A stretch of 64,000 nt of DNA. Origin: Gemmatimonadota bacterium (lineage in GTDB: Bacteria; JBHIER01; G020348925). How positions within the stretch are numbered: position 1 is the first letter of the stretch; each line of letters starts with the position of its first letter. The DNA lies in contig CP070758.1 of the NCBI GenBank assembly GCA_020348925.1, positions 248,001-312,000 of the forward strand. Direction: 5' to 3'. The notes under the pieces are model-generated. The model was not told the origin of the DNA and searched no databases. It was given only the letters and a program-made list of their open reading frames with translations. The translations under genes and the position numbers were made by a program. Shown here one piece after another: positions 82 to 11,617 of the stretch.

Positions 82-534
82 TCACTTGTCAGTCCCCTGT
101 TGTTTCAAATGTCCCTGCAGGGCCTGCAAACCCAACAGGTAACTGTCAGTTCCGAATCCGGATATCTGCCCCAGCGCCACCGGAGCAATGAGGGATACGT
201 GGCGGAATTCCTCCCGGGCATGAATGTTCGAAAGGTGCACCTCAACGGCAGGTACGCCCACGGCCGCCACGGCGTCACGGATGGCCACGCTGGTGTGCGT
301 GTAGGCCGCCGGATTGATGAGGATGCCATCGGCCCAATCGGCCGCCTCACCGATGGCATCGACAAGAGCCCCTTCGTGGTTGGACTGGACGATCTTGACT
401 TTCACGCCCTCTTGTTCAGCCCAATCCTGAACGGCCGCATTGATCTCTTCGAGAGTTTTTTCACCGTAAACAGCCATCTCTCTCCGGCCCAAAAGATTGA
501 GGTTCGGGCCGTGAATTAACAGAATTCGCATCAT
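82..534 (-). CDS. aroQ: Type II 3-dehydroquinate dehydratase
   Basis: [12 protein letters not shown]...[18 protein letters not shown] and [14 protein letters not shown] motifs; ATGA overlap with the aroB stop. Confidence 0.97.
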
Positions 535-1616
535 AGGGAACGCTCCTTCAAAGTTTTTCGTATCACGTCATCCGGCACTGTGTCGGTTATCATCACTTGC
601 CCGATCTCCCTGGGCAGCACAAACCGAACCTTGCCGTCGCGTACTTTTTTATCGTGACGGAGAAACTCGATAACAGCATCCGCGCTCACGTTCCTGATCC
701 GCGTGGGCAGATGTGCTCTCTCGATGAGGTTGCTGAGCCTCTCCGAGGTTTTGACCGACGTGACGTTCAGTCGCACTCCAATATCCGTCGCACAGATCAT
801 CCCCAAGGCCACAGCCTCACCGTGCCGGTACCGGGAATAATTTGTAGCCGTCTCTATGGCATGGCCGATGGTATGACCGAAATTCAACAGCGCTCGCTGC
901 CCCTCATCCCTTTCATCCTTGGTCACAATAGAGGCTTTGATCTCGCACGAACGTTTCACGACAGTGTGCAGTCCATTCGCCTCAAGGTTCAAGAGTGAAT
1001 CAAGATGCGTTTCGATGTATTCGAAAAGAGAGGCATCCTTGATGACACCGTACTTGATCACCTCCGCCAAGCCGGCCCTCATCTCTCTCTCAGGCAGTGT
1101 GTCTAAAACACTGAGACTGATGATGACACATCTGGGTTGATAAAAACTGCCGATCATGTTCTTCCCTCGCGGGTGATCCACAGCCACCTTCCCCCCGACG
1201 CTGGCATCCACCTGGGCCAACAACGTCGTTGGCACCTGCACAAAAGGGATACCCCGTTTGAATGTCGCCGCCACGAAACCGGCCAGATCACCGAGCACAC
1301 CTCCCCCCAGAGCGACGATTGTCGAGCTTCGATCAATTCTGTTATCCATAAGAGAATCATACAGCGTATTCGCATATTCCAGAGTCTTGTACTCCTCGCC
1401 GTCCGGAACGACTCTGGAGGATACTCCGTACCCTTCCCCATGAAATCCCTCAAGGACATCCTCCAGATACATGCTTCCCACCGTGGGATTTGTAAAGACC
1501 ATGACCCTCCCGGTAATACCATTTTTTTTCAAAAGTTCACCGACCCGGCCAAGGATGTCTCCCCCGATATAGATGGGGTAGCTCCTGTCGCCCAGTTCAA
1601 CCTGTACGTGGTCCAT
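531..1616 (-). CDS. aroB: 3-dehydroquinate synthase
   Basis: [29 protein letters not shown] and [12 protein letters not shown] motifs. Start placed at MDHVQVELG (1616), which has AGGAG upstream. Confidence 0.97.
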
Positions 1617-2124
1617 GGCATGACTCCTGGAGGTAACGGATGATTTTCCCCGCGACGTCTTCAACATCAAGATCGGACGTGTCAATTTCGCAGTGGGCTT
1701 GGGTGTAAAAGGGTCTTCTCTCATTCAGCAGATGCTCGATCCGTATTTTCCGGTCCCCGGTCTCAAGCAACGGTCGATGATGTGTATCCCTGGTCCTTTC
1801 CAGGATCACATCAGGCCTCGCGAAAAGGTGAATCATGCACCCCAACTTCTTCAGAGTCGCCACGTTTCGGCTATCCAGAACAACACCTCCACCTGTAGCA
1901 ACGACGAGGCCACGACGGTTCGAGATTTGGGACACGATGCCCCTCTCGACCTCCCTGAAAAAGCGCTCACCGAATCGTTCGAAGATCTCGTTCACGGACA
2001 ATTTCAACTTCTCCTCGATCAAGGAATCGAGATCCACAAAAATCATATTCAATCGTTCGGCCAGTCTCCTGCCCACTACTGTCTTTCCTGTTCCCATAAA
2101 ACCCACCAAGACAATGTTCATCAT
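1597..2124 (-). CDS. aroK: Shikimate kinase
   Basis: Walker [25 protein letters not shown] and RPLL motifs. Confidence 0.96.
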
Positions 2125-3284
2125 GACGATGAGAACTCCCTGACCTGTTTCATATATCCATCGAAATTTCGTTTCATCTCATTCATACTGTCTCCGCCGA
2201 ACTTCTCGCACAGCGCCCCCGCGATTTCGAAGGCAACGACGGCTTCGCCGATGACGCCCATGGCCGGAACGGCGCATACGTCGGCGCGCTCCTTGTGGGC
2301 CTCGAAGGGGTCCTTGGTCCTGACGTCCACGGAGCGAAGCGGTCTCCCCAGTGTGGGGATCGGTTTCATGGCCACGCTTGTGACGATATCCTCTCCGTTG
2401 GACACCCCCCCCTCTATACCACCTGCCCTGTTGGTCAACCGGGTAAAGGTCTCGCCGTTGTGTCCGATTTCATCGTGCACCTGTGAGCCAGGCAAGGAGG
2501 CTGCCTCAAAACCAAGTCCAATCTCGACGCCCTTCACGGCCGGGATGGACACGAGGGCAAAGGCGAGCCTCGCGTCCAGCTTCCGGTCCCAGTGCGCGTA
2601 ACTGCCCAAACCCGGTGGACAACCCCGCACTCTGATCTCACAGACGCCGCCGAGGGTGTCGCCCTGGGCCAGGGCGCTATCGATGGCCGCAATCATTCTC
2701 GCTTCCGCTTCTCTGTCCGCGCACCTGAGCGGTGAGCCTTCGGCCTGTTCTCCGATGTCCGCAAAAGAGAGATTTCCACTCTCGACGGCAATTGAACCGA
2801 TTCGTACGACATGGCTGATGACGTCGATTCGAAATTCCTTCAAGAGTTTCTTCGCCACCGCCCCTACGGCCACACGGGCCGCAGTCTCTCGCGCACTGGC
2901 GCGCTCCAAAACATTCCGGATATCCGTGTGGTGATACTTCACTGCCCCTGCCAGGTCGGCGTGTCCCGGCCTCGGCCGCGTTTCAGACGGTCGTTCCCCT
3001 GATACCTGCTCCACGGACATCCTTTCCCGCCAGTTCTCCCAGTCCCTGTTGCGGATCAAAAGTGTGACGGGACTTCCGATGGTTTTCCCGAAACGGACGC
3101 CGGACAGGATCTCAATCCGGTCGGACTCGATCTTCATACGACCGCCGCGTCCGTATCCGACCTGTCGACGCTTGAGTTCATTATCGATGTCTTCGCGAGT
3201 GAGTCCCAGACCAGAGGGGATACCCTCAAGTATTGCCGTGAGATTTTGACCATGCGATTCGCCGGCTGTAAGGTACCGTAACAT
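2121..3284 (-). CDS. aroC: Chorismate synthase
   Basis: [22 protein letters not shown] and MKPIPT motifs. Start MLRYLT follows GAGGAG. Confidence 0.98.
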
Positions 3285-3335
3285 AACTGTCTCCTCATTC
3301 ATACCAAAATATCGCAACCAAGTCCTACCGCAAGC

Positions 3336-4163
3336 TTATTTTTTCGCCACATTGAAAAGTGCTCGTCTCATTATTTCCAGCGGTGCTTTCTCCCCGGTCC
3401 AGAGTTCAAAGGCCAACACACCTTGGTGGAGCAACATGCTCATTCCATTTCCGATCCTCGCCCCCTTCTCTCTGACAGCCGTAATGAATGGCGTTTCCTT
3501 TTGGTTATAAACAATATCATAGATAAGCTGTTTCTCCGAGACCAATAATGGATTTAAATCCATAGGAGTTGATGTCGTGTTCACCACGAGCTGCGCCTCA
3601 CATATTTCACTTTCAACCTGGAGATCATTCCAGGGCAAGGGACATGCTCCAACGCTCCGGGCCAATATCTCTGCTTTTTCAAAGGTCCTGTTTACGAGGG
3701 TCAATCGCTCCGGATTCTCTCGGTTCAGAGCCCAGCAAATCGCTCGGCCGGCGCCTCCTGCTCCCATAACGACGATTCTTTTACCGCGTGGATCAAATCC
3801 GTAATCATCCTTCAGAGATTTTACAAACCCTGTACCATCGGTGTTATATCCGACCAGGATCTCCTCTCTGTTGACCACAGTATTGACCGCCCCGATCTCT
3901 TTAACCTCATTGCTGACCTCGTCCAAGAGGTCCAGAGCTCCTGTCTTATGAGGATGGGTCAGGTTCACCCCGAGGAGGTTGAGGGCACGAATTCCTCCGA
4001 TGGCACCTTCGAGATTATGCCGTGCCACCTCAAAGGGAAGGTACATCATGTTCAGACCCAAGGCACGAAAGGCGGCGTTGTGCATGCGCGGTGAAAGGGT
4101 GTGCGCAACAGGATCGCCAAAGATACCGAGTATCTTAGTTGTCCCCGTCACATTGACGGACAT
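3336..4163 (-). CDS. aroE: Shikimate dehydrogenase
   Basis: HTLSPRMHN, NLTHPHK, IGAVNT, GYNTDG, GAGGAG and DIVY motifs. Confidence 0.95.
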   Translation of the reverse strand: MSVNVTGTTKILGIFGDPVAHTLSPRMHNAAFRALGLNMMYLPFEVARHNLEGAIGGIRALNLLGVNLTHPHKTGALDLLDEVSNEVKEIGAVNTVVNREEILVGYNTDGTGFVKSLKDDYGFDPRGKRIVVMGAGGAGRAICWALNRENPERLTLVNRTFEKAEILARSVGACPLPWNDLQVESEICEAQLVVNTTSTPMDLNPLLVSEKQLIYDIVYNQKETPFITAVREKGARIGNGMSMLLHQGVLAFELWTGEKAPLEIMRRALFNVAKK

Positions 4164-4740
4164 TTCGAATAAACTCCTCAATTTTGTGATGATCCTTCTT
4201 CCCCGGAGACCGTTCTACTCCTGTTGATATATCAACGGCGTACGGTCGAATTCTTCTGATGGCCTCTCCCACATTTTCAGGAGTGAGCCCGCCGGCAAGA
4301 ATGATCGGGTCCTCAATTTCTCTCACCAGATCCCAATTGAACCGCTTACCGGTTCCACCACCGCTCGATGAGTCCAGGAGGTATGCATCGACATGGTAAC
4401 GGGCGATCTCATCAATTATCGATCGATCCTTCACCCTGAAAGCTTTGATAACTCCCTTGTCAAAACCGCGACAATACTCAGGAGACTCGTTCCCGTGAAA
4501 CTGAAGGGCGTCGAGGCGGCATGACAGGGCGATCTCCCAAACCTGCTCCGCAGGCGCATCGACGAACACACCCACCGTGGTGACGAATGGTGGAATCTCG
4601 AAGATGATCTTTTTGGCATCGGCCGGTTCGATCTTTCTCGGACTGTCGGCGAAGACAAAGCCCAAAGCATCAACTCCGCATTGAACCGCCGCCAAGGCAT
4701 CCTTTAGATTCGTGATCCCGCAGATCTTGACCCGTGTCAT
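4135..4740 (-). CDS. trpF: Phosphoribosylanthranilate isomerase
   Basis: VKICGIT, LQFHGNE, GGTG, LAGGLTPENV and VDISTGVE motifs. Confidence 0.97.
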   Translation of the reverse strand: MTRVKICGITNLKDALAAVQCGVDALGFVFADSPRKIEPADAKKIIFEIPPFVTTVGVFVDAPAEQVWEIALSCRLDALQFHGNESPEYCRGFDKGVIKAFRVKDRSIIDEIARYHVDAYLLDSSSGGGTGKRFNWDLVREIEDPIILAGGLTPENVGEAIRRIRPYAVDISTGVERSPGKKDHHKIEEFIRNVRQCDGDN

Positions 4741-5501
4741 CTTCCCCGAAGCTCCCTGAGCTTGGCACCGATATCAGATGCATCCATCAGAGACTCTCCA
4801 ATCAAGACCGCATCGAACGCCGCCGCCTCCAACATGAGGATATCCTCTCGTTCCTTGAGCCCGCTTTCGCTGACAGTAATGATACCCGCAGGGATCAAAC
4901 TCTTAAGCCGAAGCGACGTCGTCATGTCAACCGTCAAAGTGGAAAGATTCCGGTTGTTTATCCCGATGACCTGAGCTTTTGTCCTCAGGACTTTTTCAAG
5001 GTCATCTTCGCTGTGAACCTCCACGAGACATGAGAGACCCACTTCCTCTGCGAGATTTAAAAAGTCGTTGATCTCCGTTCGATCCAGGATGGAAGCGATG
5101 AGTAAAATCGCATCGGCCCCCAGGGCCCTCGACTCATAAATCTGAATCGGATCGATAAGAAACTCTTTGCGCAGGACTGGCAGATCGGTCACTCCTTTCA
5201 CGAGAGCCACGAATTCATCCCTCCCGCCGAAATACTTCCGGTCAGTCAGCACCGAAATGGCGGCGGCACCATTTTTTTCGTAAATTGTGGCTATTTGAGT
5301 CGGGTCAGCCCCGCCTCGTATTTCTCCACTCGAAGGAGAGCATCGTTTGATTTCGGTGATCATTGAGATACCCTCACCTCTCAGAGAACTCGCAAAATCC
5401 CTGGTTGGAGGAAGTCCATTCAGGTCATACCTCTGGCCCTGAGTCCTCTTCCTGGCCACCTCGTCTCTCTTGTGTGCAACAATCTCATCCAGAATCGTCA
5501 T
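4737..5501 (-). CDS. trpC: Indole-3-glycerol phosphate synthase
   Basis: EIKRCSPSSG, ISVLTD, LRKEF, GINNRNL and SESG motifs. Start MTILDEIV. Confidence 0.96.
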   Translation of the reverse strand: MTILDEIVAHKRDEVARKRTQGQRYDLNGLPPTRDFASSLRGEGISMITEIKRCSPSSGEIRGGADPTQIATIYEKNGAAAISVLTDRKYFGGRDEFVALVKGVTDLPVLRKEFLIDPIQIYESRALGADAILLIASILDRTEINDFLNLAEEVGLSCLVEVHSEDDLEKVLRTKAQVIGINNRNLSTLTVDMTTSLRLKSLIPAGIITVSESGLKEREDILMLEAAAFDAVLIGESLMDASDIGAKLRELRGR

Positions 5502-5698
5502 TTTTATAATCCAGATTTCGAGGGAGAGCAAAACTCAGTTGGGTCGTCATTTCTTTTCAAAATGTGCTGCCAATTGTATAGTAATTTTTTTTGACATTAC
5601 CAACGTCTTTGCTGAAATGAATCGGATCTCTGCCTGTAATCCCACACCGTCCGATCTCGCCGTCGGCTCATAAGGACACGTGCCCTCCCAATCCTGTA

Positions 5699-5932
5699 TC
5701 AGGGAATCTCCACCGCAAAACAGGTTAAGGTACGAGTAATGCCATCCATTGTGTGGAGTTTTTCAGTGACCACATTTCGAATTGCCTCCGGATCAGCAGT
5801 TTCTATTATCGCGATGGCATCGTACATGCCGGTCAGCGAGTCGGCTACTTGCACCTCCTGCATCCGGCGAAGTTCCTTGACGACGCTGTTTACCTTACCT
5901 GCCCCTATCTCAATCAACACATAGGCCTTCAT
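5699..5932 (-). CDS. Stand-alone Lrp/AsnC ligand-binding (RAM) domain protein
   Basis: 77 aa, KAYVLIE...LTGMYDAIAIIE...GITRTLT pattern, no HTH; AGGAGG RBS. Confidence 0.85.
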   Translation of the reverse strand: MKAYVLIEIGAGKVNSVVKELRRMQEVQVADSLTGMYDAIAIIETADPEAIRNVVTEKLHTMDGITRTLTCFAVEIP

Positions 5933-5961
5933 CGCATGCACCTCCTTGTATTCGAGCTCTT

Positions 5962-6972
5962 TTAAGAATTCGTAATGACCATGAGTCTTTCCATTTTCTC
6001 AAGAGCGGCTCCGGCATCCAGGGACTTCTCCGCCAATGATATCCCCTCTTCGATACTTTGTGCCACTCCCCCAACAGCAATAGCCGCCCCCGCGTTCAAC
6101 AGGACGACATCCCTTTTCGGTCCACGCTCACCCTGGAGGATGCGCCTGGCTATCTCAACATTCTCCTCGGTATCGCCTCCTCTCAGTTGATCCAAGGACG
6201 TCCTTGAAATCCCGAAATCCTCCGGCTGAATGTAATAACTCTTTATGCCTCCAGGTGCAACCTCCGAGACTTTCGTTCTTGATGTCGTCGTAATTTCATC
6301 GAGCCCGTCCTCTCCGTGAACGACATAGGCGTGGTTGCAGCCCAGTCTGCTCAAAACGTCAGCCATCGGTTCCGTCAGGGCCTCGGCATAGACACCCAAC
6401 AACTGAGCGTTGGCCATTGCCGGATTGGTCAAAGGTCCCAATATATTGAACACGGTCCGAATACCCATCTCCCGTCTGGGACCGATGGCGTATTTCATCG
6501 CCCCATGAAGTAACGGTGCGAACAGAAAGCCCATGCCGACGTCATCGATACATTGGGCAACCACATCCGGAGGTACTTCAATATTGATTCCCAGACCCTT
6601 TAAGACATCAGCGCTGCCGCACCTGCTCGACACCGATCGGTTACCGTGTTTGGCCACTTTGACGCCTGCACCGGCGGCTACGAAGGCGCTCACCGTTGAA
6701 ATATTGAACGTCCCGCTGGCGTCGCCTCCGGTCCCGCACGTGTCAACTATGGGCCCGGTATGACTTTGAATATGGATCGCTTTGTCTCTCATCACCCTGG
6801 CGAAGCCCGTGATCTCCTCCACCGTTTCGCCCTTCAGTCTGAGGGCGGTCAGAAAAGAGGCGATCTGGGCATCCGTCGCCCTTCCTGACATGATCTCTCC
6901 CATGACGGAAGCAGCCTCTCTCTCCGTGAGGTCCGAACCCTCAACGACTTTACCTATAGTTTCCTGAATCAT
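5962..6972 (-). CDS. trpD: Anthranilate phosphoribosyltransferase
   Basis: DTCGTGGD, FNIST, KHGNRSVSSRCGSAD and GLDE motifs. Confidence 0.98.
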   Translation of the reverse strand: MIQETIGKVVEGSDLTEREAASVMGEIMSGRATDAQIASFLTALRLKGETVEEITGFARVMRDKAIHIQSHTGPIVDTCGTGGDASGTFNISTVSAFVAAGAGVKVAKHGNRSVSSRCGSADVLKGLGINIEVPPDVVAQCIDDVGMGFLFAPLLHGAMKYAIGPRREMGIRTVFNILGPLTNPAMANAQLLGVYAEALTEPMADVLSRLGCNHAYVVHGEDGLDEITTTSRTKVSEVAPGGIKSYYIQPEDFGISRTSLDQLRGGDTEENVEIARRILQGERGPKRDVVLLNAGAAIAVGGVAQSIEEGISLAEKSLDAGAALEKMERLMVITNS

Positions 6973-7041
6973 CCCTACCACTCCTTATTTCAATGAGAAC
7001 GTATTCACTCGTTTTTTCACTTCATCAGTATTGTCGACTTC

Positions 7042-7605
7042 TCATTTTTCGATAAAATTTTTCAGTAGATTCTTCCCCGTTGCGGTCAGAATCGACTCAG
7101 GATGGAATTGAACACCCTCGACCCTGTAAACCTTATGTCGAATGCCCATAATAATTCCGTCATCTGTCCACGCACTGATCTCAAAACAATCCGGCAACGA
7201 TGCTTTCTCCACTATGAGTGAATGATATCTCGTGGCCGTGAAGGGATTCTCGATGTTTTCATAAATGGTTCGGCCATCGTGGTGAATTGAGGACGTCTTC
7301 CCGTGCATAACACCATCCGCTCGCACAACTCTTCCACCAAAGGCCTGCGCTATGGACTGGTGTCCGAGGCATACACCCAAAATGGGGATCTTTCCGGAAA
7401 AGTACTTCACCGCCTCCACTGAGATCCCGGCCTCGTCTGGAGTACACGGGCCAGGCGAGATAACAATTCGATCTGGATTCGCCCTGTCAATTTCTTCAGG
7501 ACAAATCCTGTCGTTGCGGCGAACAACCACATCGATCCCCAGCTCGCCGAGGTATTGGACGAGGTTGTAAGTAAAAGAGTCGTAATTGTCAATCATGAAG
7601 ATCAT
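7042..7605 (-). CDS. trpG: Anthranilate synthase component II (glutamine amidotransferase)
   Basis: IDNYDSFTYNL, SPGPC, GVCLGHQ and QFHPES motifs; lies in the trp operon. Confidence 0.95.
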   Translation of the reverse strand: MIFMIDNYDSFTYNLVQYLGELGIDVVVRRNDRICPEEIDRANPDRIVISPGPCTPDEAGISVEAVKYFSGKIPILGVCLGHQSIAQAFGGRVVRADGVMHGKTSSIHHDGRTIYENIENPFTATRYHSLIVEKASLPDCFEISAWTDDGIIMGIRHKVYRVEGVQFHPESILTATGKNLLKNFIEK

Positions 7606-8728
7606 CGGGTACCCTGTCTTTCTCAAAGGATCTATTGACGTTCTCGACCTCGGTGAAATATTTTTCCCCTCGCTTCATTATATCGACGAACCGATCACGA
7701 TCCTTTGCCAGAACCGTTTCTGTGATTTCACTCATGGCCGCACGCAGCTGTTTATAAAGCTCTGGTGTATAAGCGTTCGTATTCTGAATTTCATAATACA
7801 GAAAAGGATTCTCAGTAATTACGGAGACAGTGGTGGCACTCTGGTGGACGAATGTTGTGCTCGCCACTTCCGAAAATGCCTTGTACGGGATGCCGCTATT
7901 CGAAAGGGTGTGGGCAAAGATAATATTCAAAATGTGCGAAAGCCCCAGTACGTAGGAAGCCAGAACGTCATGTCGTTCCAGGGGAAGCTCCACCAACGAA
8001 GCGGACGTCTCCTGAAAGAGTGCTCTGACTTCGGAGAAGGATTCCTCGTCCCCACACTCACACAGGCAGATGACTTTGTCAGAAAGCATCCGAGCCTCAG
8101 GCCCGAAGAGGGGATGAATACTGGCGACACGTAGCTGAGCTTTTCGGGCTTTCCGAATCGTTTCGAGAAGGCCGCTTTTGAGGCTGGCAATGTCGCACAT
8201 GATGCCCGCAGGTCTCAATTGCATGAGCTCTTCGTACACTCCGGGTGTCTCATCGAGCGGTGTTGCCAGCAAAATGAGTGAGGCATCGCGAACGCCGTCT
8301 TGCAACGTCTCAAAAGACGGAAACTGTGGCAGGAAACCCGCTTTATCGTAAATAGAGACGAAGTGGCCTTGATTGTGAAAGAATCGAGCAAACCACCTTC
8401 CCATTCTCCCCCTCCCCCCTACGATAAATATCCGTCCCAGGTCACCGTCGTACGTTGCGTCCCGGAGCCCCTCCTGAAACGCGCACGATTCCCGAATGAG
8501 ATGCTGCATAATCTTTCTCACCAGTTCATGAGGAAGACGAAGTCTTCGAGCCGCACGATGAGCCCGGTCGATCACATCCCTTTCGACACTCCAGTCTCGA
8601 ATGGGGATACCCATCTTTCCTTTTTCCTCTCCAACCTTTACGGCCAGTTCAAGCCTTTGAGCGATGAGCTCAAGCAGCTTCGTGTCGACTTCTTCAATCT
8701 CGGTGCGCAGTCTGTCCAACGTCTTCAT
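7589..8728 (-). CDS. tyrA: Bifunctional chorismate mutase / prephenate dehydrogenase
   Basis: N-terminal AroQ-type chorismate mutase (LRTEIEEVD...R...K...IRD..VE), then GGRGRMG Rossmann motif, DIASLK, HPLFGP and HD...LSH. Confidence 0.88.
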   Translation of the reverse strand: MKTLDRLRTEIEEVDTKLLELIAQRLELAVKVGEEKGKMGIPIRDWSVERDVIDRAHRAARRLRLPHELVRKIMQHLIRESCAFQEGLRDATYDGDLGRIFIVGGRGRMGRWFARFFHNQGHFVSIYDKAGFLPQFPSFETLQDGVRDASLILLATPLDETPGVYEELMQLRPAGIMCDIASLKSGLLETIRKARKAQLRVASIHPLFGPEARMLSDKVICLCECGDEESFSEVRALFQETSASLVELPLERHDVLASYVLGLSHILNIIFAHTLSNSGIPYKAFSEVASTTFVHQSATTVSVITENPFLYYEIQNTNAYTPELYKQLRAAMSEITETVLAKDRDRFVDIMKRGEKYFTEVENVNRSFEKDRVPDDLHD

Positions 8729-8769: not shown

Positions 8770-10230
8770 TTATATGCAATCAGCGTTCGCAGTTTCCACT
8801 GCCCGGAACAGAGCCTGTGCCTTTTGAATTGTCTCACAATACTCACGCTCCGGAACCGAATCAGCGACGATACCTGCACCCGTTTGGATATAGGCCATAT
8901 GATCCTTTATTACGATGGTCCGAATCGCGATACACATATCAAGGTTTCCGGTAAAACTCACGTAACCCACAGCTCCGGCATAGATCCCACGCCGCGCCGG
9001 CTCCAGTTCGTCAATGATCTCCATTGCCCGGACCTTCGGTGCACCGGAGACGGTACCGGCGGGAAATGTCGCCCGGAGCACATCGAAGGCGTCTTTGTCT
9101 TGGTTCAATTTCCCGACAACATTCGAAACGAGATGTATGACGTGTGAGTATTTCTCCACCTCCAAGAGTTCGGTAACCTTCACACTCCCATAGTCGCACA
9201 CCCGGCCAATATCGTTTCTACCAAGATCAACAAGCATAATATGCTCCGCTTTCTCTTTATCATCGTTTTTGAGTTCCTGTATCAATGTCTCATCTTCCTT
9301 TTGAGAATTTCCCCTGGGTCGTGTCCCGGCCAACGGCCTCGTCTCGACGAGGCCTTCTTCTACTCTCACCAACATTTCCGGGGATGAGCCAATAATGCGA
9401 ATTCGATTGAAATTGAGGTAATACATATAAGGTGATGGATTCGTCCTGCGGAGCGCGCGGAAGATCCGCAAGGGATCGAATTCGATCGGGACACTGAATC
9501 TCTGGGAGAGGACGACCTGAAACACATCTCCGGCGAATATATATTCTCTGGCTCTCTCCACCATTTTTTGAAATTGTTCGCGAGTGAGGTTCGACTCAAG
9601 GCCTGATGATTTTTCACCCCGTACGCGTCGTTTTTTCTCAGGGAACCCTTCGTGTTTAAGACGTTCAACTGTTTTCTCAACAGTCTTTAAAGCCAACAGG
9701 CCCCCTTCATACTTCTCACGCGTCCCATTGGAGATTATAGTAAGAGATTGTACCTGATGGTCAAAAACTACGACAATCCTTGGAAAGACGAGGATGCAGT
9801 CCGGGACGTCCACATCATCTGGATTACTATCTGGAAGCGCTTCAAAAAATCTGACCACATCATAACCAAAATACCCCACACCGCCACAGGCGAATTTCAC
9901 AACATCGATCGTTGCTTGCATTTGAAAACGGCTCATGAGATTTTTCAGAATCTCAATCGGATCCCCCTCCTCCTGCACCGTCCTCTCACCGTTCGAGACG
10001 GTGACAGTATCTCCCTTGCTCTGAAAAGAGAGAAACGGATCAAAGCCCAATATGGAATAGCGTGCAATTTTTTCCTCACCCTCCAGGCTTTCCAGGAGAA
10101 AGGAATATATTTTATCCGCACACAGAGCCTCATAGAGGTCAACGGGTGCGATACCATCAATTGATGTGCGCCGAACGACAGGAATTATTTCACCCCCTAT
10201 ATTCAACGCTTCAAGATCATGCCGTGTCAT
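8770..10230 (-). CDS. trpE: Anthranilate synthase component I
   Basis: LLES and NPSPYM Trp-feedback motifs, GDVFQVVLSQR, EHIMLVDLGRND, FPAGTVSGAPK and GAGIVADS. Confidence 0.97.
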   Translation of the reverse strand: MTRHDLEALNIGGEIIPVVRRTSIDGIAPVDLYEALCADKIYSFLLESLEGEEKIARYSILGFDPFLSFQSKGDTVTVSNGERTVQEEGDPIEILKNLMSRFQMQATIDVVKFACGGVGYFGYDVVRFFEALPDSNPDDVDVPDCILVFPRIVVVFDHQVQSLTIISNGTREKYEGGLLALKTVEKTVERLKHEGFPEKKRRVRGEKSSGLESNLTREQFQKMVERAREYIFAGDVFQVVLSQRFSVPIEFDPLRIFRALRRTNPSPYMYYLNFNRIRIIGSSPEMLVRVEEGLVETRPLAGTRPRGNSQKEDETLIQELKNDDKEKAEHIMLVDLGRNDIGRVCDYGSVKVTELLEVEKYSHVIHLVSNVVGKLNQDKDAFDVLRATFPAGTVSGAPKVRAMEIIDELEPARRGIYAGAVGYVSFTGNLDMCIAIRTIVIKDHMAYIQTGAGIVADSVPEREYCETIQKAQALFRAVETANADCI

Positions 10231-10260
10231 ACAGCTTTCTCTCCATTGCAACAGGAGTCA

Positions 10261-10294
10261 CAAAAAAACCCACAACCGAAATCGGATGCGGGTT
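10261..10294 (-). terminator. Attenuator terminator hairpin upstream of trpE
   Basis: Minus strand reads AACCCGCATCCGA-TT-TCGGTTGTGGGTT-TTTTT, between the leader ORF and the trpE start. Confidence 0.85.
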
Positions 10295-10323
10295 CTATTA
10301 TTTTCTCTAATGAAACCAAAATT

Positions 10324-10479
10324 TTAAATCATAAATCCCAATCCTTTCCCGGTTGGTTGTGATCGGCTGTAGTAACGCCAAGCACGCCAGCCCCAGATGC
10401 ACCAAACCCCCTTGCCCCGAGAGCGCCAATCATTTTTGTGTTCCACAACCTGATAATACAACCGAACCGAAAAAGACAT
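10324..10479 (-). CDS. Trp/Tyr-rich attenuator leader peptide (TrpL-like), 51 aa
   Basis: Hand translation MSFSVRLYYQVVEHKNDWRSRGKGVWCIWGWRAWRYYSRSQPTGKGLGFMI*; AAAGGA RBS; lies between promoter and terminator. Confidence 0.85.
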   Translation of the reverse strand: MSFSVRLYYQVVEHKNDWRSRGKGVWCIWGWRAWRYYSRSQPTGKGLGFMI

Positions 10480-10542
10480 TGTTTTCCTTTCTCATACTCA
10501 GTTTTTTATTCAAGATGCATCTCCCGATTCATCTTTCCATTA

Positions 10543-10571
10543 ATTCTAAAAGATTTCAATCCGTTTGTCAA
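10543..10571 (-). promoter_or_regulatory. Sigma70-type promoter of the aromatic operon
   Basis: TTGACA-17 nt-TAGAAT on the minus strand, about 65 nt upstream of the leader ATG. Confidence 0.8.
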
Positions 10572-10831
10572 GTAAAAAATGAAAAATTGATGACTGTGGC
10601 AAGCACGGGGTATCCACCCGCGTTTGCTTCTGGGATGAGATGATCCAGCATGCGTGGAGGTAAATTTTACGTTTTTTTCTTCCTTCCGCCGTCTTTTCTG
10701 AGCGAAAGATATCAACCGGACTTATCCTGCCCGGCCGCCGATTCTTCCGATTGCTGTTGAAATAGAGTTGATGCCCATACGATTTTGCGAACAAGTGATC
10801 ACGCCTCCGATCACGGATATCACTTTTTTCA

Positions 10832-10861
10832 TTGACAACGTCATATGTTTCGGGTTATGTT
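10832..10861 (+). promoter_or_regulatory. Candidate sigma70 promoter for the GT2 gene
   Basis: TTGACA-18 nt-TATGTT upstream of a GAGGAG RBS. Confidence 0.5.
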
Positions 10862-10906
10862 ATGACAGAAATTTTTTCACCAGAAACAAACGAGGAGCAT
10901 TACTCT

Positions 10907-11617
10907 ATGAAGTTATCGATCATTATGCCAATTTTCAACGAAGAAAAGACGTTGCTGACGATATTGGATCGTGTCAAAGACGTCCCACTCGAGAAAGAGA
11001 TTATTATAGTCGATGACTGCTCTACTGACGGGACACGGGATCTACTGAAAAAGATCGACTCAGAGAATATCTTGATCTCTTATCACGACACAAATGAGGG
11101 AAAAGGGGCCGCCGTCCGGTCAGGTCTCCAGCACGTTACCGGGGATATCATCATTATCCAGGATGGGGATCTCGAGTATGATCCGGCTGATTTTCCGAAA
11201 TTGGTTCAGCCCATTCTCGACGAAAAAACGGATGTGGTATACGGATCCAGGGCGTTAGCCAAAAGTCCCATCTCATATCGGCGGTACAATTTGGGAGCAA
11301 AGTTCATCACATGGGTGGCGAACCTATTATACGGCCTCAATCTTACTGATCTCTGGACCTGCTATAAGGTGATAAAAAAGGATGTGATAGTCAGTCTCGA
11401 TTTGAAGTGCCAAAGGTTTGAATTCTGCCCCGAGGTCACGGCCAAACTTTCAAGAATGGGCCACTCCATTCTCGAGCTCCCAATCTCATACCACCCCCGA
11501 CCCTTCGAAGAGGGAAAAAAGATACGCTGGCACGACGGTCTCGTCGGGATATGGACGCTCCTCCGATATCGATTTTGGAAGGGACCAGAACGTGAAATGA
11601 AGAGGGCTTCGTCCTGA
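10907..11617 (+). CDS. Family 2 glycosyltransferase (DPM1/polyprenol-phosphate type)
   Basis: KLSIIMPIFNEE, VDDCSTDGT, NEGKGAA, IQDGDLEYDP and VYGSR motifs. Confidence 0.92.
   Translation: MKLSIIMPIFNEEKTLLTILDRVKDVPLEKEIIIVDDCSTDGTRDLLKKIDSENILISYHDTNEGKGAAVRSGLQHVTGDIIIIQDGDLEYDPADFPKLVQPILDEKTDVVYGSRALAKSPISYRRYNLGAKFITWVANLLYGLNLTDLWTCYKVIKKDVIVSLDLKCQRFEFCPEVTAKLSRMGHSILELPISYHPRPFEEGKKIRWHDGLVGIWTLLRYRFWKGPEREMKRASS

Follow-up and report, generated by a model that had tools for sequence, protein, structure and literature searches.

The window, a 64,000-nt stretch of the genome designated G000, carries a run of trp, tyr and shikimate genes on its minus strand. Heading the run is trpE (8770..10230 in window coordinates, which are used throughout; TIGR00564, 578.8 bits, over the cut-off), putatively the first regulated gene. 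On the same strand, trpE is preceded, in order, by a sigma-70-type promoter (TTGACA-17-TAGAAT, 10543..10571), a ribosome binding site (10485..10490, with AAGGA at 10489-10485), a 51-codon ORF (10324..10479), a 30-nt spacer and a hairpin with a U7 tail. All of these elements lie where the original prediction had placed them. The promoter, with a consensus score of 11/12, was the top of five sites found in 9800-11200, where shuffled sequences gave a mean of 2.0 sites. Another strong promoter-like site (10/12) occurs on the plus strand at 10832-10861, at the start of a divergent glycosyltransferase ORF. The hairpin (10294-10266) and its U7 tract (10268-10262) form a predicted intrinsic terminator (10262..10294, -17.4 kcal/mol) that was identified by folding only; a simple terminator scan of the window skipped it, probably because of its internal loop.

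The ORF encodes a long, TrpL-like leader peptide with Trp at residues 18, 26, 29, 31 and 34, Tyr at 8, 9, 36 and 37, and Phe at 3 and 49. We determined how far this composition could arise by chance. Five Trp in 50 codons has a P of about 0.001 at the genome Trp frequency, a crude figure taken from long ORFs, while the four Tyr in 50 codons are not significant alone (P = 0.10 in G000, within a range of 0.10-0.48). A six-frame search of the genome for ATG ORFs of 30-70 aa gave 20,858, of which 23 contain four Trp within nine residues, and a T6 run within 110 nt downstream follows just one of these 23, the leader described here. The leader RNA is also more stable than expected, with a fold z of -3.81 and none of 200 shuffles equally stable.

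Behind trpE lie tyrA, trpG, trpD, an Lrp/AsnC ORF, trpC, trpF, aroE, aroC, aroK, aroB and aroQ (82..8728, minus strand), and the run continues past the window with trpB; trpA, aroF and aroA presumably follow there, names that we assigned by reading translations and not by a family scan. Pfam domains identify tyrA as a chorismate mutase fused to a prephenate dehydrogenase, which scored under the NCBIfam cut-off. The Lrp/AsnC ORF (77 aa; 5699-5932, minus strand, between trpD and trpC), absent from the ORF list, encodes a stand-alone Lrp/AsnC ligand-binding domain (PF01037, 51 bits). In G001, which together with G000 represents the phylum, trpD and trpC overlap and leave no space for such an ORF; a gap of about 250 nt without a long gene-strand ORF separates trpG from trpD in that genome (L034 4770-5015). 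In G000, about 200 nt with an A/T-rich stretch lie ahead of trpC (window 5501-5699, minus strand). A consensus promoter scan of this gap found no minus-strand site. The genes of the predicted super-operon are present as a run, and a single transcript across all of them is inferred, as this gap may hold an internal promoter.

Homologous leaders

The leader has homologues in G001 (P0002), a member of the same family but another genus, and in G051, which belongs to another phylum, as well as one, P0126, that is available as protein only and is apparently cut at its C-terminus. The TrpE of G001 is 69% identical to that of G000, and its leader has 51 codons and occupies the same location. The G051 leader, also of 51 codons, was found by searching for the terminator pattern. 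Together with one more distant leader, from G041, these were the sequences compared. Since all of them are related, the four leaders and G041 are not independent.

Several further searches defined how widely the leader occurs. Protein searches with the leader gave two, three and three matches; one of the searches with three was a profile search of 1.84 billion representatives, and P0126 was the sole new lineage overall. A search of the ESM Atlas with the leader yielded no usable match. When seven genomes of the G041 phylum were searched for the terminator pattern, two matched, one of them G051, while a reversed control gave no matches; viral contigs also gave none. No homologous leader was present ahead of trpE at 25 loci of other families (of 30 loci, 27 were read). 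A sequence-only leader model recovered no further full-length homologue beyond its two inputs in the seven genomes of the G041 phylum, nor in five other genomes, again beyond two inputs, or in 97 loci, and otherwise gave weak partial matches, mostly at the promoter end. In a metagenome scan with the TrpE N-terminus, one of 333 candidate stretches was confirmed; it was 37% identical and lacked a related leader. About ten close relatives of TyrA (67-77% identity) are known as proteins. Upstream of trpE at two other loci, L020 and L023, are short ORFs that end in a Trp-Trp-Arg motif and are likely ordinary trp leaders of other lineages.

Comparison of the four leaders revealed a fixed framework around variable stretches. 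The length is 51 codons in all three complete sequences (G000, G001 and G051), as expected if the unusual length proposed for this leader is genuine, and the spacer between stop codon and terminator is 30, 31 and 25 nt. Met1, Phe3, Ser4, Val5, Val12, Gly24, Trp26, Cys27, Trp29, Trp31, Trp34 and Lys45 are invariant, and each leader has an additional Trp at residue 18 (10428-10426 in G000) or 21-22. At codons 6-22, just 1-6 of 17 residues are common to any two leaders (six pairwise comparisons). The Trp cluster at codons 26, 29, 31 and 34 (10378..10404) is the same in 4/4 leaders, and the T of TGG does not vary at these four codons in the three DNA sequences. A purine-rich Shine-Dalgarno sequence precedes the homologous ATG in both G001 and G051; the -35 box and an A/T-rich -10 are retained in G001, G051 and G041.

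The two Tyr-Tyr doublets that the original prediction had singled out behaved differently. Both are present in G000, but the N-terminal one (Tyr8-Tyr9, 10453..10458) is private to that genome and missing from all three others, G001, P0126 and G051. Tyr8 is replaced by Phe in near-identical strains, as seen in P0003 and in contigs from two of four DNA runs, namely the two that cover the site; these are single, low-depth contigs from two studies, and none of the contigs from the four runs spans the whole stretch. The sequencing runs listed as containing this DNA included no RNA run. The second doublet (Tyr36-Tyr37, 10369..10374) lies in a region where every leader has two Tyr and is a candidate second sensor.

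RNA helices and ribosome position

We characterized three helices that could exchange in the leader RNA, which we number as in classical attenuators. Segment 1, the protector strand, covers codons 2-7 (10461..10475, minus strand). Segment 2, at codons 41-48 (10337..10358), can pair either with segment 1 or with segment 3, the 5′ arm and loop of the terminator (10292-10274). In G000 the duplex energies are -27.7 kcal/mol for 1:2 and -19.3 kcal/mol for 2:3; the 2:3 duplex is predicted at -21.4 in G001, -14.7 in G051 and -16.8 kcal/mol in G041. The 1:2 core (codons 2-7 with 41-46) is complete (10/10 pairs) in G000, G001 and G051, and the consensus fold of these three sequences extends it to 15 pairs. 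As most of these pairs are invariant, they count as conservation, not covariation. Ten of 11 terminator pairs are retained in 4/4 genomes, with a G-U/G-C/A-U exchange at one pair, and the G041 terminator adds two further pair types. The RNAs of G000, G001 and G051 are each predicted to form the three helices, and promoter, terminator, antiterminator and protector helix are retained in both of the other leaders known as DNA, G001 and G051.

The three pairings proposed from the G000 sequence exist. One of them, which involves GGUUGUG (10444-10450), is private to G000, where the segment 1 pairing runs further, to about 10444; the conserved protector strand, at 10475-10461, had been overlooked. 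RNAalifold further placed two small hairpins over the sensor codons (10373..10427, minus strand, comprising 10427-10398 and 10389-10373). Both are nested within the loop closed by the protector helix, and three of their pairs are changed on both sides, a count that has low power with three sequences.

Selection on these helices can be seen where they part company with the protein. In G001 a 1-nt shift places segment 2 in another frame while its DNA is retained; therefore selection acts on the RNA. This bears on the idea that the regulator is the peptide, acting as a nascent arrest peptide or in trans, with the G-x-W-C-x-W-x-W core kept for that purpose. TnaC-like arrest peptides sense free Trp. 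Such an action would account for the invariance of Gly24 and Cys27 beside the Trp residues and for the fixed length. However, Cys27 and its neighbours lie within one of the conserved small hairpins, which could explain them as RNA, the C-terminal third is in a different frame in G001, and neither Pfam nor NCBIfam contains a match to the peptide. In addition, a biosynthetic operon has to be switched on when Trp is scarce, and codon stalling achieves this directly. We therefore consider action by the peptide very unlikely.

A second alternative is that the RNA is untranslated and controlled by a protein or ligand, or that a Gly-rich +1 frame is the one translated, so that the Trp codons would be incidental. 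The +1 frame is open for about 35-49 codons and contains an ATG in all three DNA sequences, and mismatches show a weak third-position bias (9/10/13, 12/12/14 and 10/9/11). Nevertheless, the +1 ATGs are at non-homologous positions, whereas the Trp frame retains its Shine-Dalgarno sequence, ATG and length, and we rejected the +1 frame as the translated frame. The T of TGG is a silent site in the +1 frame, yet it is unvaried at the four Trp codons in all three sequences. Searches of G000 (96% complete) returned no match to T-box models, no gene for TRAP (PF02081) and no match to TrpR. This alternative, too, is highly improbable. Instead, the conserved Trp codons and exchangeable helices support the proposed ribosome-mediated attenuation in response to Trp, and the comparison with the trpE upstream regions of relatives agrees with it: very probably, the locus is a transcription attenuator of the trp/tyr/shikimate gene run that senses charged tRNA-Trp.

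To model how translation could operate the switch, we folded the RNAs at equilibrium with the ribosome footprint masked. Folding with masked windows, the check named in the original prediction, yielded an antiterminator that is removed by a ribosome near the leader end. Antiterminator was lost when the masked ribosome stood anywhere from codon 42 (G000 and G001) or codon 46 (G041) to codon 48, and at codon 44 in G051. A ribosome at the stop codon abolished it in every single-ribosome run; the exception was G000 with an initiating ribosome also masked, which kept an antiterminator probability of 0.72.

The outcome for ribosomes in the sensor region depended on the genome, on RNA length and on what lay behind them. 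With one stalled ribosome, the antiterminator probability in G000 was 0.04-0.37 on the shorter nascent RNA versus 0.95-1.0 on the longer one, which already reached 0.95 with no ribosome; values were 0.3-1.0 in G001 (at Trp codons), 0.0 in G051 and 0.03-0.11 in G041 (at Tyr codons). When everything back to the start codon was masked, the probability rose to 0.96-1.0 in G000, G001 and G041. On a shorter RNA in which the entire 5′ end was masked, the value for G001 dropped to 0.25-0.33 at codons 26 and 31-33. On the full-length RNA, the terminator wins at equilibrium for almost all ribosome positions, and therefore read-through must be kinetic. These models make a switch from stalled ribosome to read-through plausible.

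In the mechanism we propose, when Trp and Tyr are plentiful the ribosome would reach codons 42-52 and cover segment 2, so that the terminator would form and transcription would stop near 10262-10268. A stall at Trp26-34 or Tyr36-37 would leave segment 2 free to pair with the 5′ arm and loop of the terminator, and polymerase would read into trpE. Without translation, the 1:2 helix and the terminator would both form (super-attenuation). The least certain step concerns segment 1, which lies behind the stalled ribosome and would have to be kept from re-pairing. This could occur if a ribosome stalled at the sensor codons opens the small hairpins closing the protector loop, if strand displacement starts at a GGAU-UGGG toehold, or if trailing ribosomes queue back to the start codon.

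Tyrosine codons and leaders of other operons

Integration of Trp with Tyr was part of the original prediction. Here Trp sensing is very probable, and Tyr is a probable second input, judging from the codons that follow the Trp cluster. Two Tyr occur within codons 32-37 of each leader, at 36/37 in G000 and P0126, 32/35 in G001 and 35/36 in G051, an outcome with a P of about 0.01 per leader on the assumption of no structural constraint. Such a constraint does exist in the predicted fold: in the hairpin of codons 31-36, codon 32 is tied to codons 34-35 and Trp31 to codon 36, as judged with low power from three sequences. Such pairing would raise the chance of UAY, so that at codon 36 about four choices, Tyr among them, are open in place of thirty. 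The argument for Tyr is weakened because codons 32 and 36 are constrained in this way.

The main competing explanation keeps the same mechanism with Trp as its sole input and regards the Tyr codons as by-products of this hairpin and of shared ancestry. It draws on the unremarkable Tyr content of the whole peptides, on the finding that no Tyr position is invariant across the four leaders, on the changes on both sides of the 32/35 and 31/36 pairs, and on a precedent. The aroR-aroF attenuator of C. glutamicum (Neshat et al. 2014, via PMC11802643, in the portion of that text available) contains a Tyr codon, and Tyr supply has no effect. Against it, every leader has exactly two Tyr, in three arrangements, although the hairpin would tolerate His, Gln, Arg and Cys as well; a homologous leader that is all Tyr in this block stands before a tyrA-aro operon in G041; and leaders of unrelated tyrA operons likewise follow operon content. 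We regard a Trp-only attenuator as possible, though clearly less likely than one that also responds to tRNA-Tyr. Overall, our preferred explanation is a Trp-sensing attenuator, probably with tRNA-Tyr as well, to which we give a probability of roughly 0.6.

Phe sensing is unlikely, as codons 23-37 contain no Phe in 4/4 leaders and a prephenate dehydratase (PF00800, pheA) had no match in either genome of the phylum (G000 96% and G001 87% complete). The absence of pheA fits a sensor region with Trp and Tyr but without Phe. Both genomes lack this match though their Trp, Tyr and shikimate genes are present, which possibly reflects Phe auxotrophy or another route.

We characterized the G041 leader, which has 52 codons and is Tyr-rich (8393-8612 of L035), further. 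It lies ahead of tyrA-aroE-aroC-aroK-aroB-aroQ-aroF-aroA, behind the same promoter, with segment 1 at codons 2-8 and a near-identical terminator 32 nt past the stop codon. Its sensor block reads G-Y-Y-Y-I-Y-G-Y-R, compared to G-V-W-C-I-W-G-W-R in G000. Alignment of the whole G041 and G000 leaders gave a z of 7.8, with none of 500 shuffles as good, while ten control upstream regions, some of which may lack a promoter, reached at most 1.1. For the G041 ORF alone, z was 2.2 (15 of 500 shuffles as good), and 0.9 against G001. The G041 genome, for which completeness is not given, contained no trpE match and no trpB over the cut-off. From this one distant case, and on the strength of sequence comparison, we infer a single attenuator family whose sensor codons would follow the operon.

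A survey of tyrA loci provided a broader view. Genomes were scanned with a TyrA alignment; 251 loci were confirmed and 80 of them kept, and 600 nt upstream were read for 48 of the 80, omitting the contig of G001 itself, loci with near-zero upstream sequence and most of the distant ones; the display showed aromatic-cluster ORFs only, which were judged by eye. At 15 loci tyrA was accompanied by trp or aro genes, and 11 of these had an aromatic-rich short ORF upstream; three of the remaining four had only 150-301 nt of upstream sequence. Six of the 11 leaders, among them that of G041, stand before tyrA-aro genes; they are rich in Tyr and contain 0-1 Trp (two come from a single assembly, and several are truncated at contig ends). 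Two others, each with three Trp and one Tyr, lie ahead of a trpB-like gene and tyrA, and the remaining three, before trp genes and tyrA, have both Trp and Tyr. Short leaders that are Tyr-rich or rich in both Trp and Tyr, and that are unrelated to the G000 leader, were noted at L049, L053, L060, L061, L064, L058, L062, L036, L047 and L055, upstream of the first operon gene and mostly with U-tailed hairpins after them. Roughly 100 nt ahead of tyrA at L067 and L070, a frame ending in Tyr-Tyr-stop is followed by a G/C-rich hairpin and a U-rich tail. It may represent a leader, or else the end of a longer gene that serves as a leader.

The G051 leader appears to be a transplanted copy. Over codons 1-34 it matches the G001 leader at 72 of 102 nt, and the G000 leader matches that of G001 at 70 of 102 nt. 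A housekeeping protein flanking the G051 leader shares 54% identity with its G000 and G001 counterparts versus 74% with that of G049, a genome of its own phylum. After the terminator, a ribosome binding site and a GTG start like that of G001 trpE occur and then break off, leaving a trpE-like stump. Beyond this stump, the region (L120 5650-6815, leader and terminator included) continues with a frameshifted his fragment, which contains PRA-CH and PRA-PH domains preceded by what we take to be the end of HisA, and then with a differently ordered trp/tyr/aro/pheA operon. Proteins encoded in that operon share 65-81% identity with their counterparts at locus L036, and 34-66% with those in G001 and G041. 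The simplest reading of these sequences is horizontal transfer of the promoter and attenuator, with the operon behind them replaced; an alternative is that the arrangement is an assembly chimera. As the G051 leader has four His codons, we considered that it might sense His; His32 could also be explained by the hairpin.

Comparison with known attenuators

If the Tyr input is real, the G000 leader would be a ribosome-operated attenuator that integrates Trp and Tyr across both branches and the shikimate trunk, and the pair from G000 and G041 would exemplify an attenuator that changes its ligand through codon swaps, seen before and after. The remote protector strand raises the question of whether the number of ribosomes, besides their position, sets an RNA switch. 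More tentatively, these leaders could represent an undescribed family of long attenuators, in which a chassis of ~51 codons carries the protector at the ORF start and sensors in nested hairpins, Trp and Tyr codons are rewritten per operon (Trp and Tyr here, Tyr only in G041), the unit was transferred across phyla and joined to a foreign operon (G051), and a ribosome queue is needed. With all of these elements taken jointly, this broader account is doubtful.

At the level of RNA families, Rfam gave no matches at the gathering score in the window. Trp_leader was absent among the eight matches with E up to 10, and the best weak match was His_leader (25.9 bits, cut-off 49), with Thr_leader at 16.9 (cut-off 55). 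Comparative surveys do include mixed aromatic leaders. No tested case of a Trp+Tyr attenuator was found in the literature searched, a scope that did not extend to large comparative surveys.

Attenuators that read several amino acids have been established in E. coli, where thrL is multivalent. In common with the ilvL, ivbL and thrL leaders, the G000 leader would be a single leader with control codons for several end products of a branched pathway. Those leaders read other amino acids, have no sequence relation to it and are shorter, at about 21-32 residues. Within the text available of PMC3783181, ilvL and ivbL are described as multivalent leaders of branched pathways. The accessible parts of PMC1262725, PMC8632094, PMC13434334 and PMC4833913 do not describe a Trp+Tyr leader of this kind. 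The P. aeruginosa leaders trpL1 and trpL2 resemble it in that Trp codons are interspersed with other residues (W10/W12 and W18/W20; PMC13434334, as excerpted), and Acholeplasma uORFC-13-1, before aroF, is likewise an attenuator candidate on a shikimate gene (PMC8632094, as excerpted). In contrast, trpL1 and trpL2 have two Trp codons each and uORFC-13-1 has Phe codons, and for none of these do the same excerpts report reading of Tyr. C. glutamicum aroR is similarly a leader with mixed aromatic codons ahead of common-pathway genes, but with Phe-Tyr-Phe and not Trp plus Tyr, and it is reported to respond to Phe, not Tyr (PMC11802643, in the part available).

The closest functional parallel is trpL of E. 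coli, and the class of mechanism is itself textbook. According to the available part of PMC1183508, trpL also comprises a leader ORF with Trp codons, 1:2, 2:3 and 3:4 helices, and an intrinsic terminator before trpE; its peptide has 14 residues, with Trp at 10-11, and its RNA is 141 nt. The G000 leader differs in having 51 versus 14 residues, an attenuated RNA of about 275 versus 141 nt, and 4-6 Trp versus two. Its operon also contains tyrA and shikimate genes. Moreover, its control codons lie 20-30 codons downstream of segment 1, not inside it: segment 1 is at codons 2-7 and the control codons are at 26-37, a geometry that is not of the trpL type. The G000 leader very probably represents a familiar, textbook mechanism, here with an unusual length.
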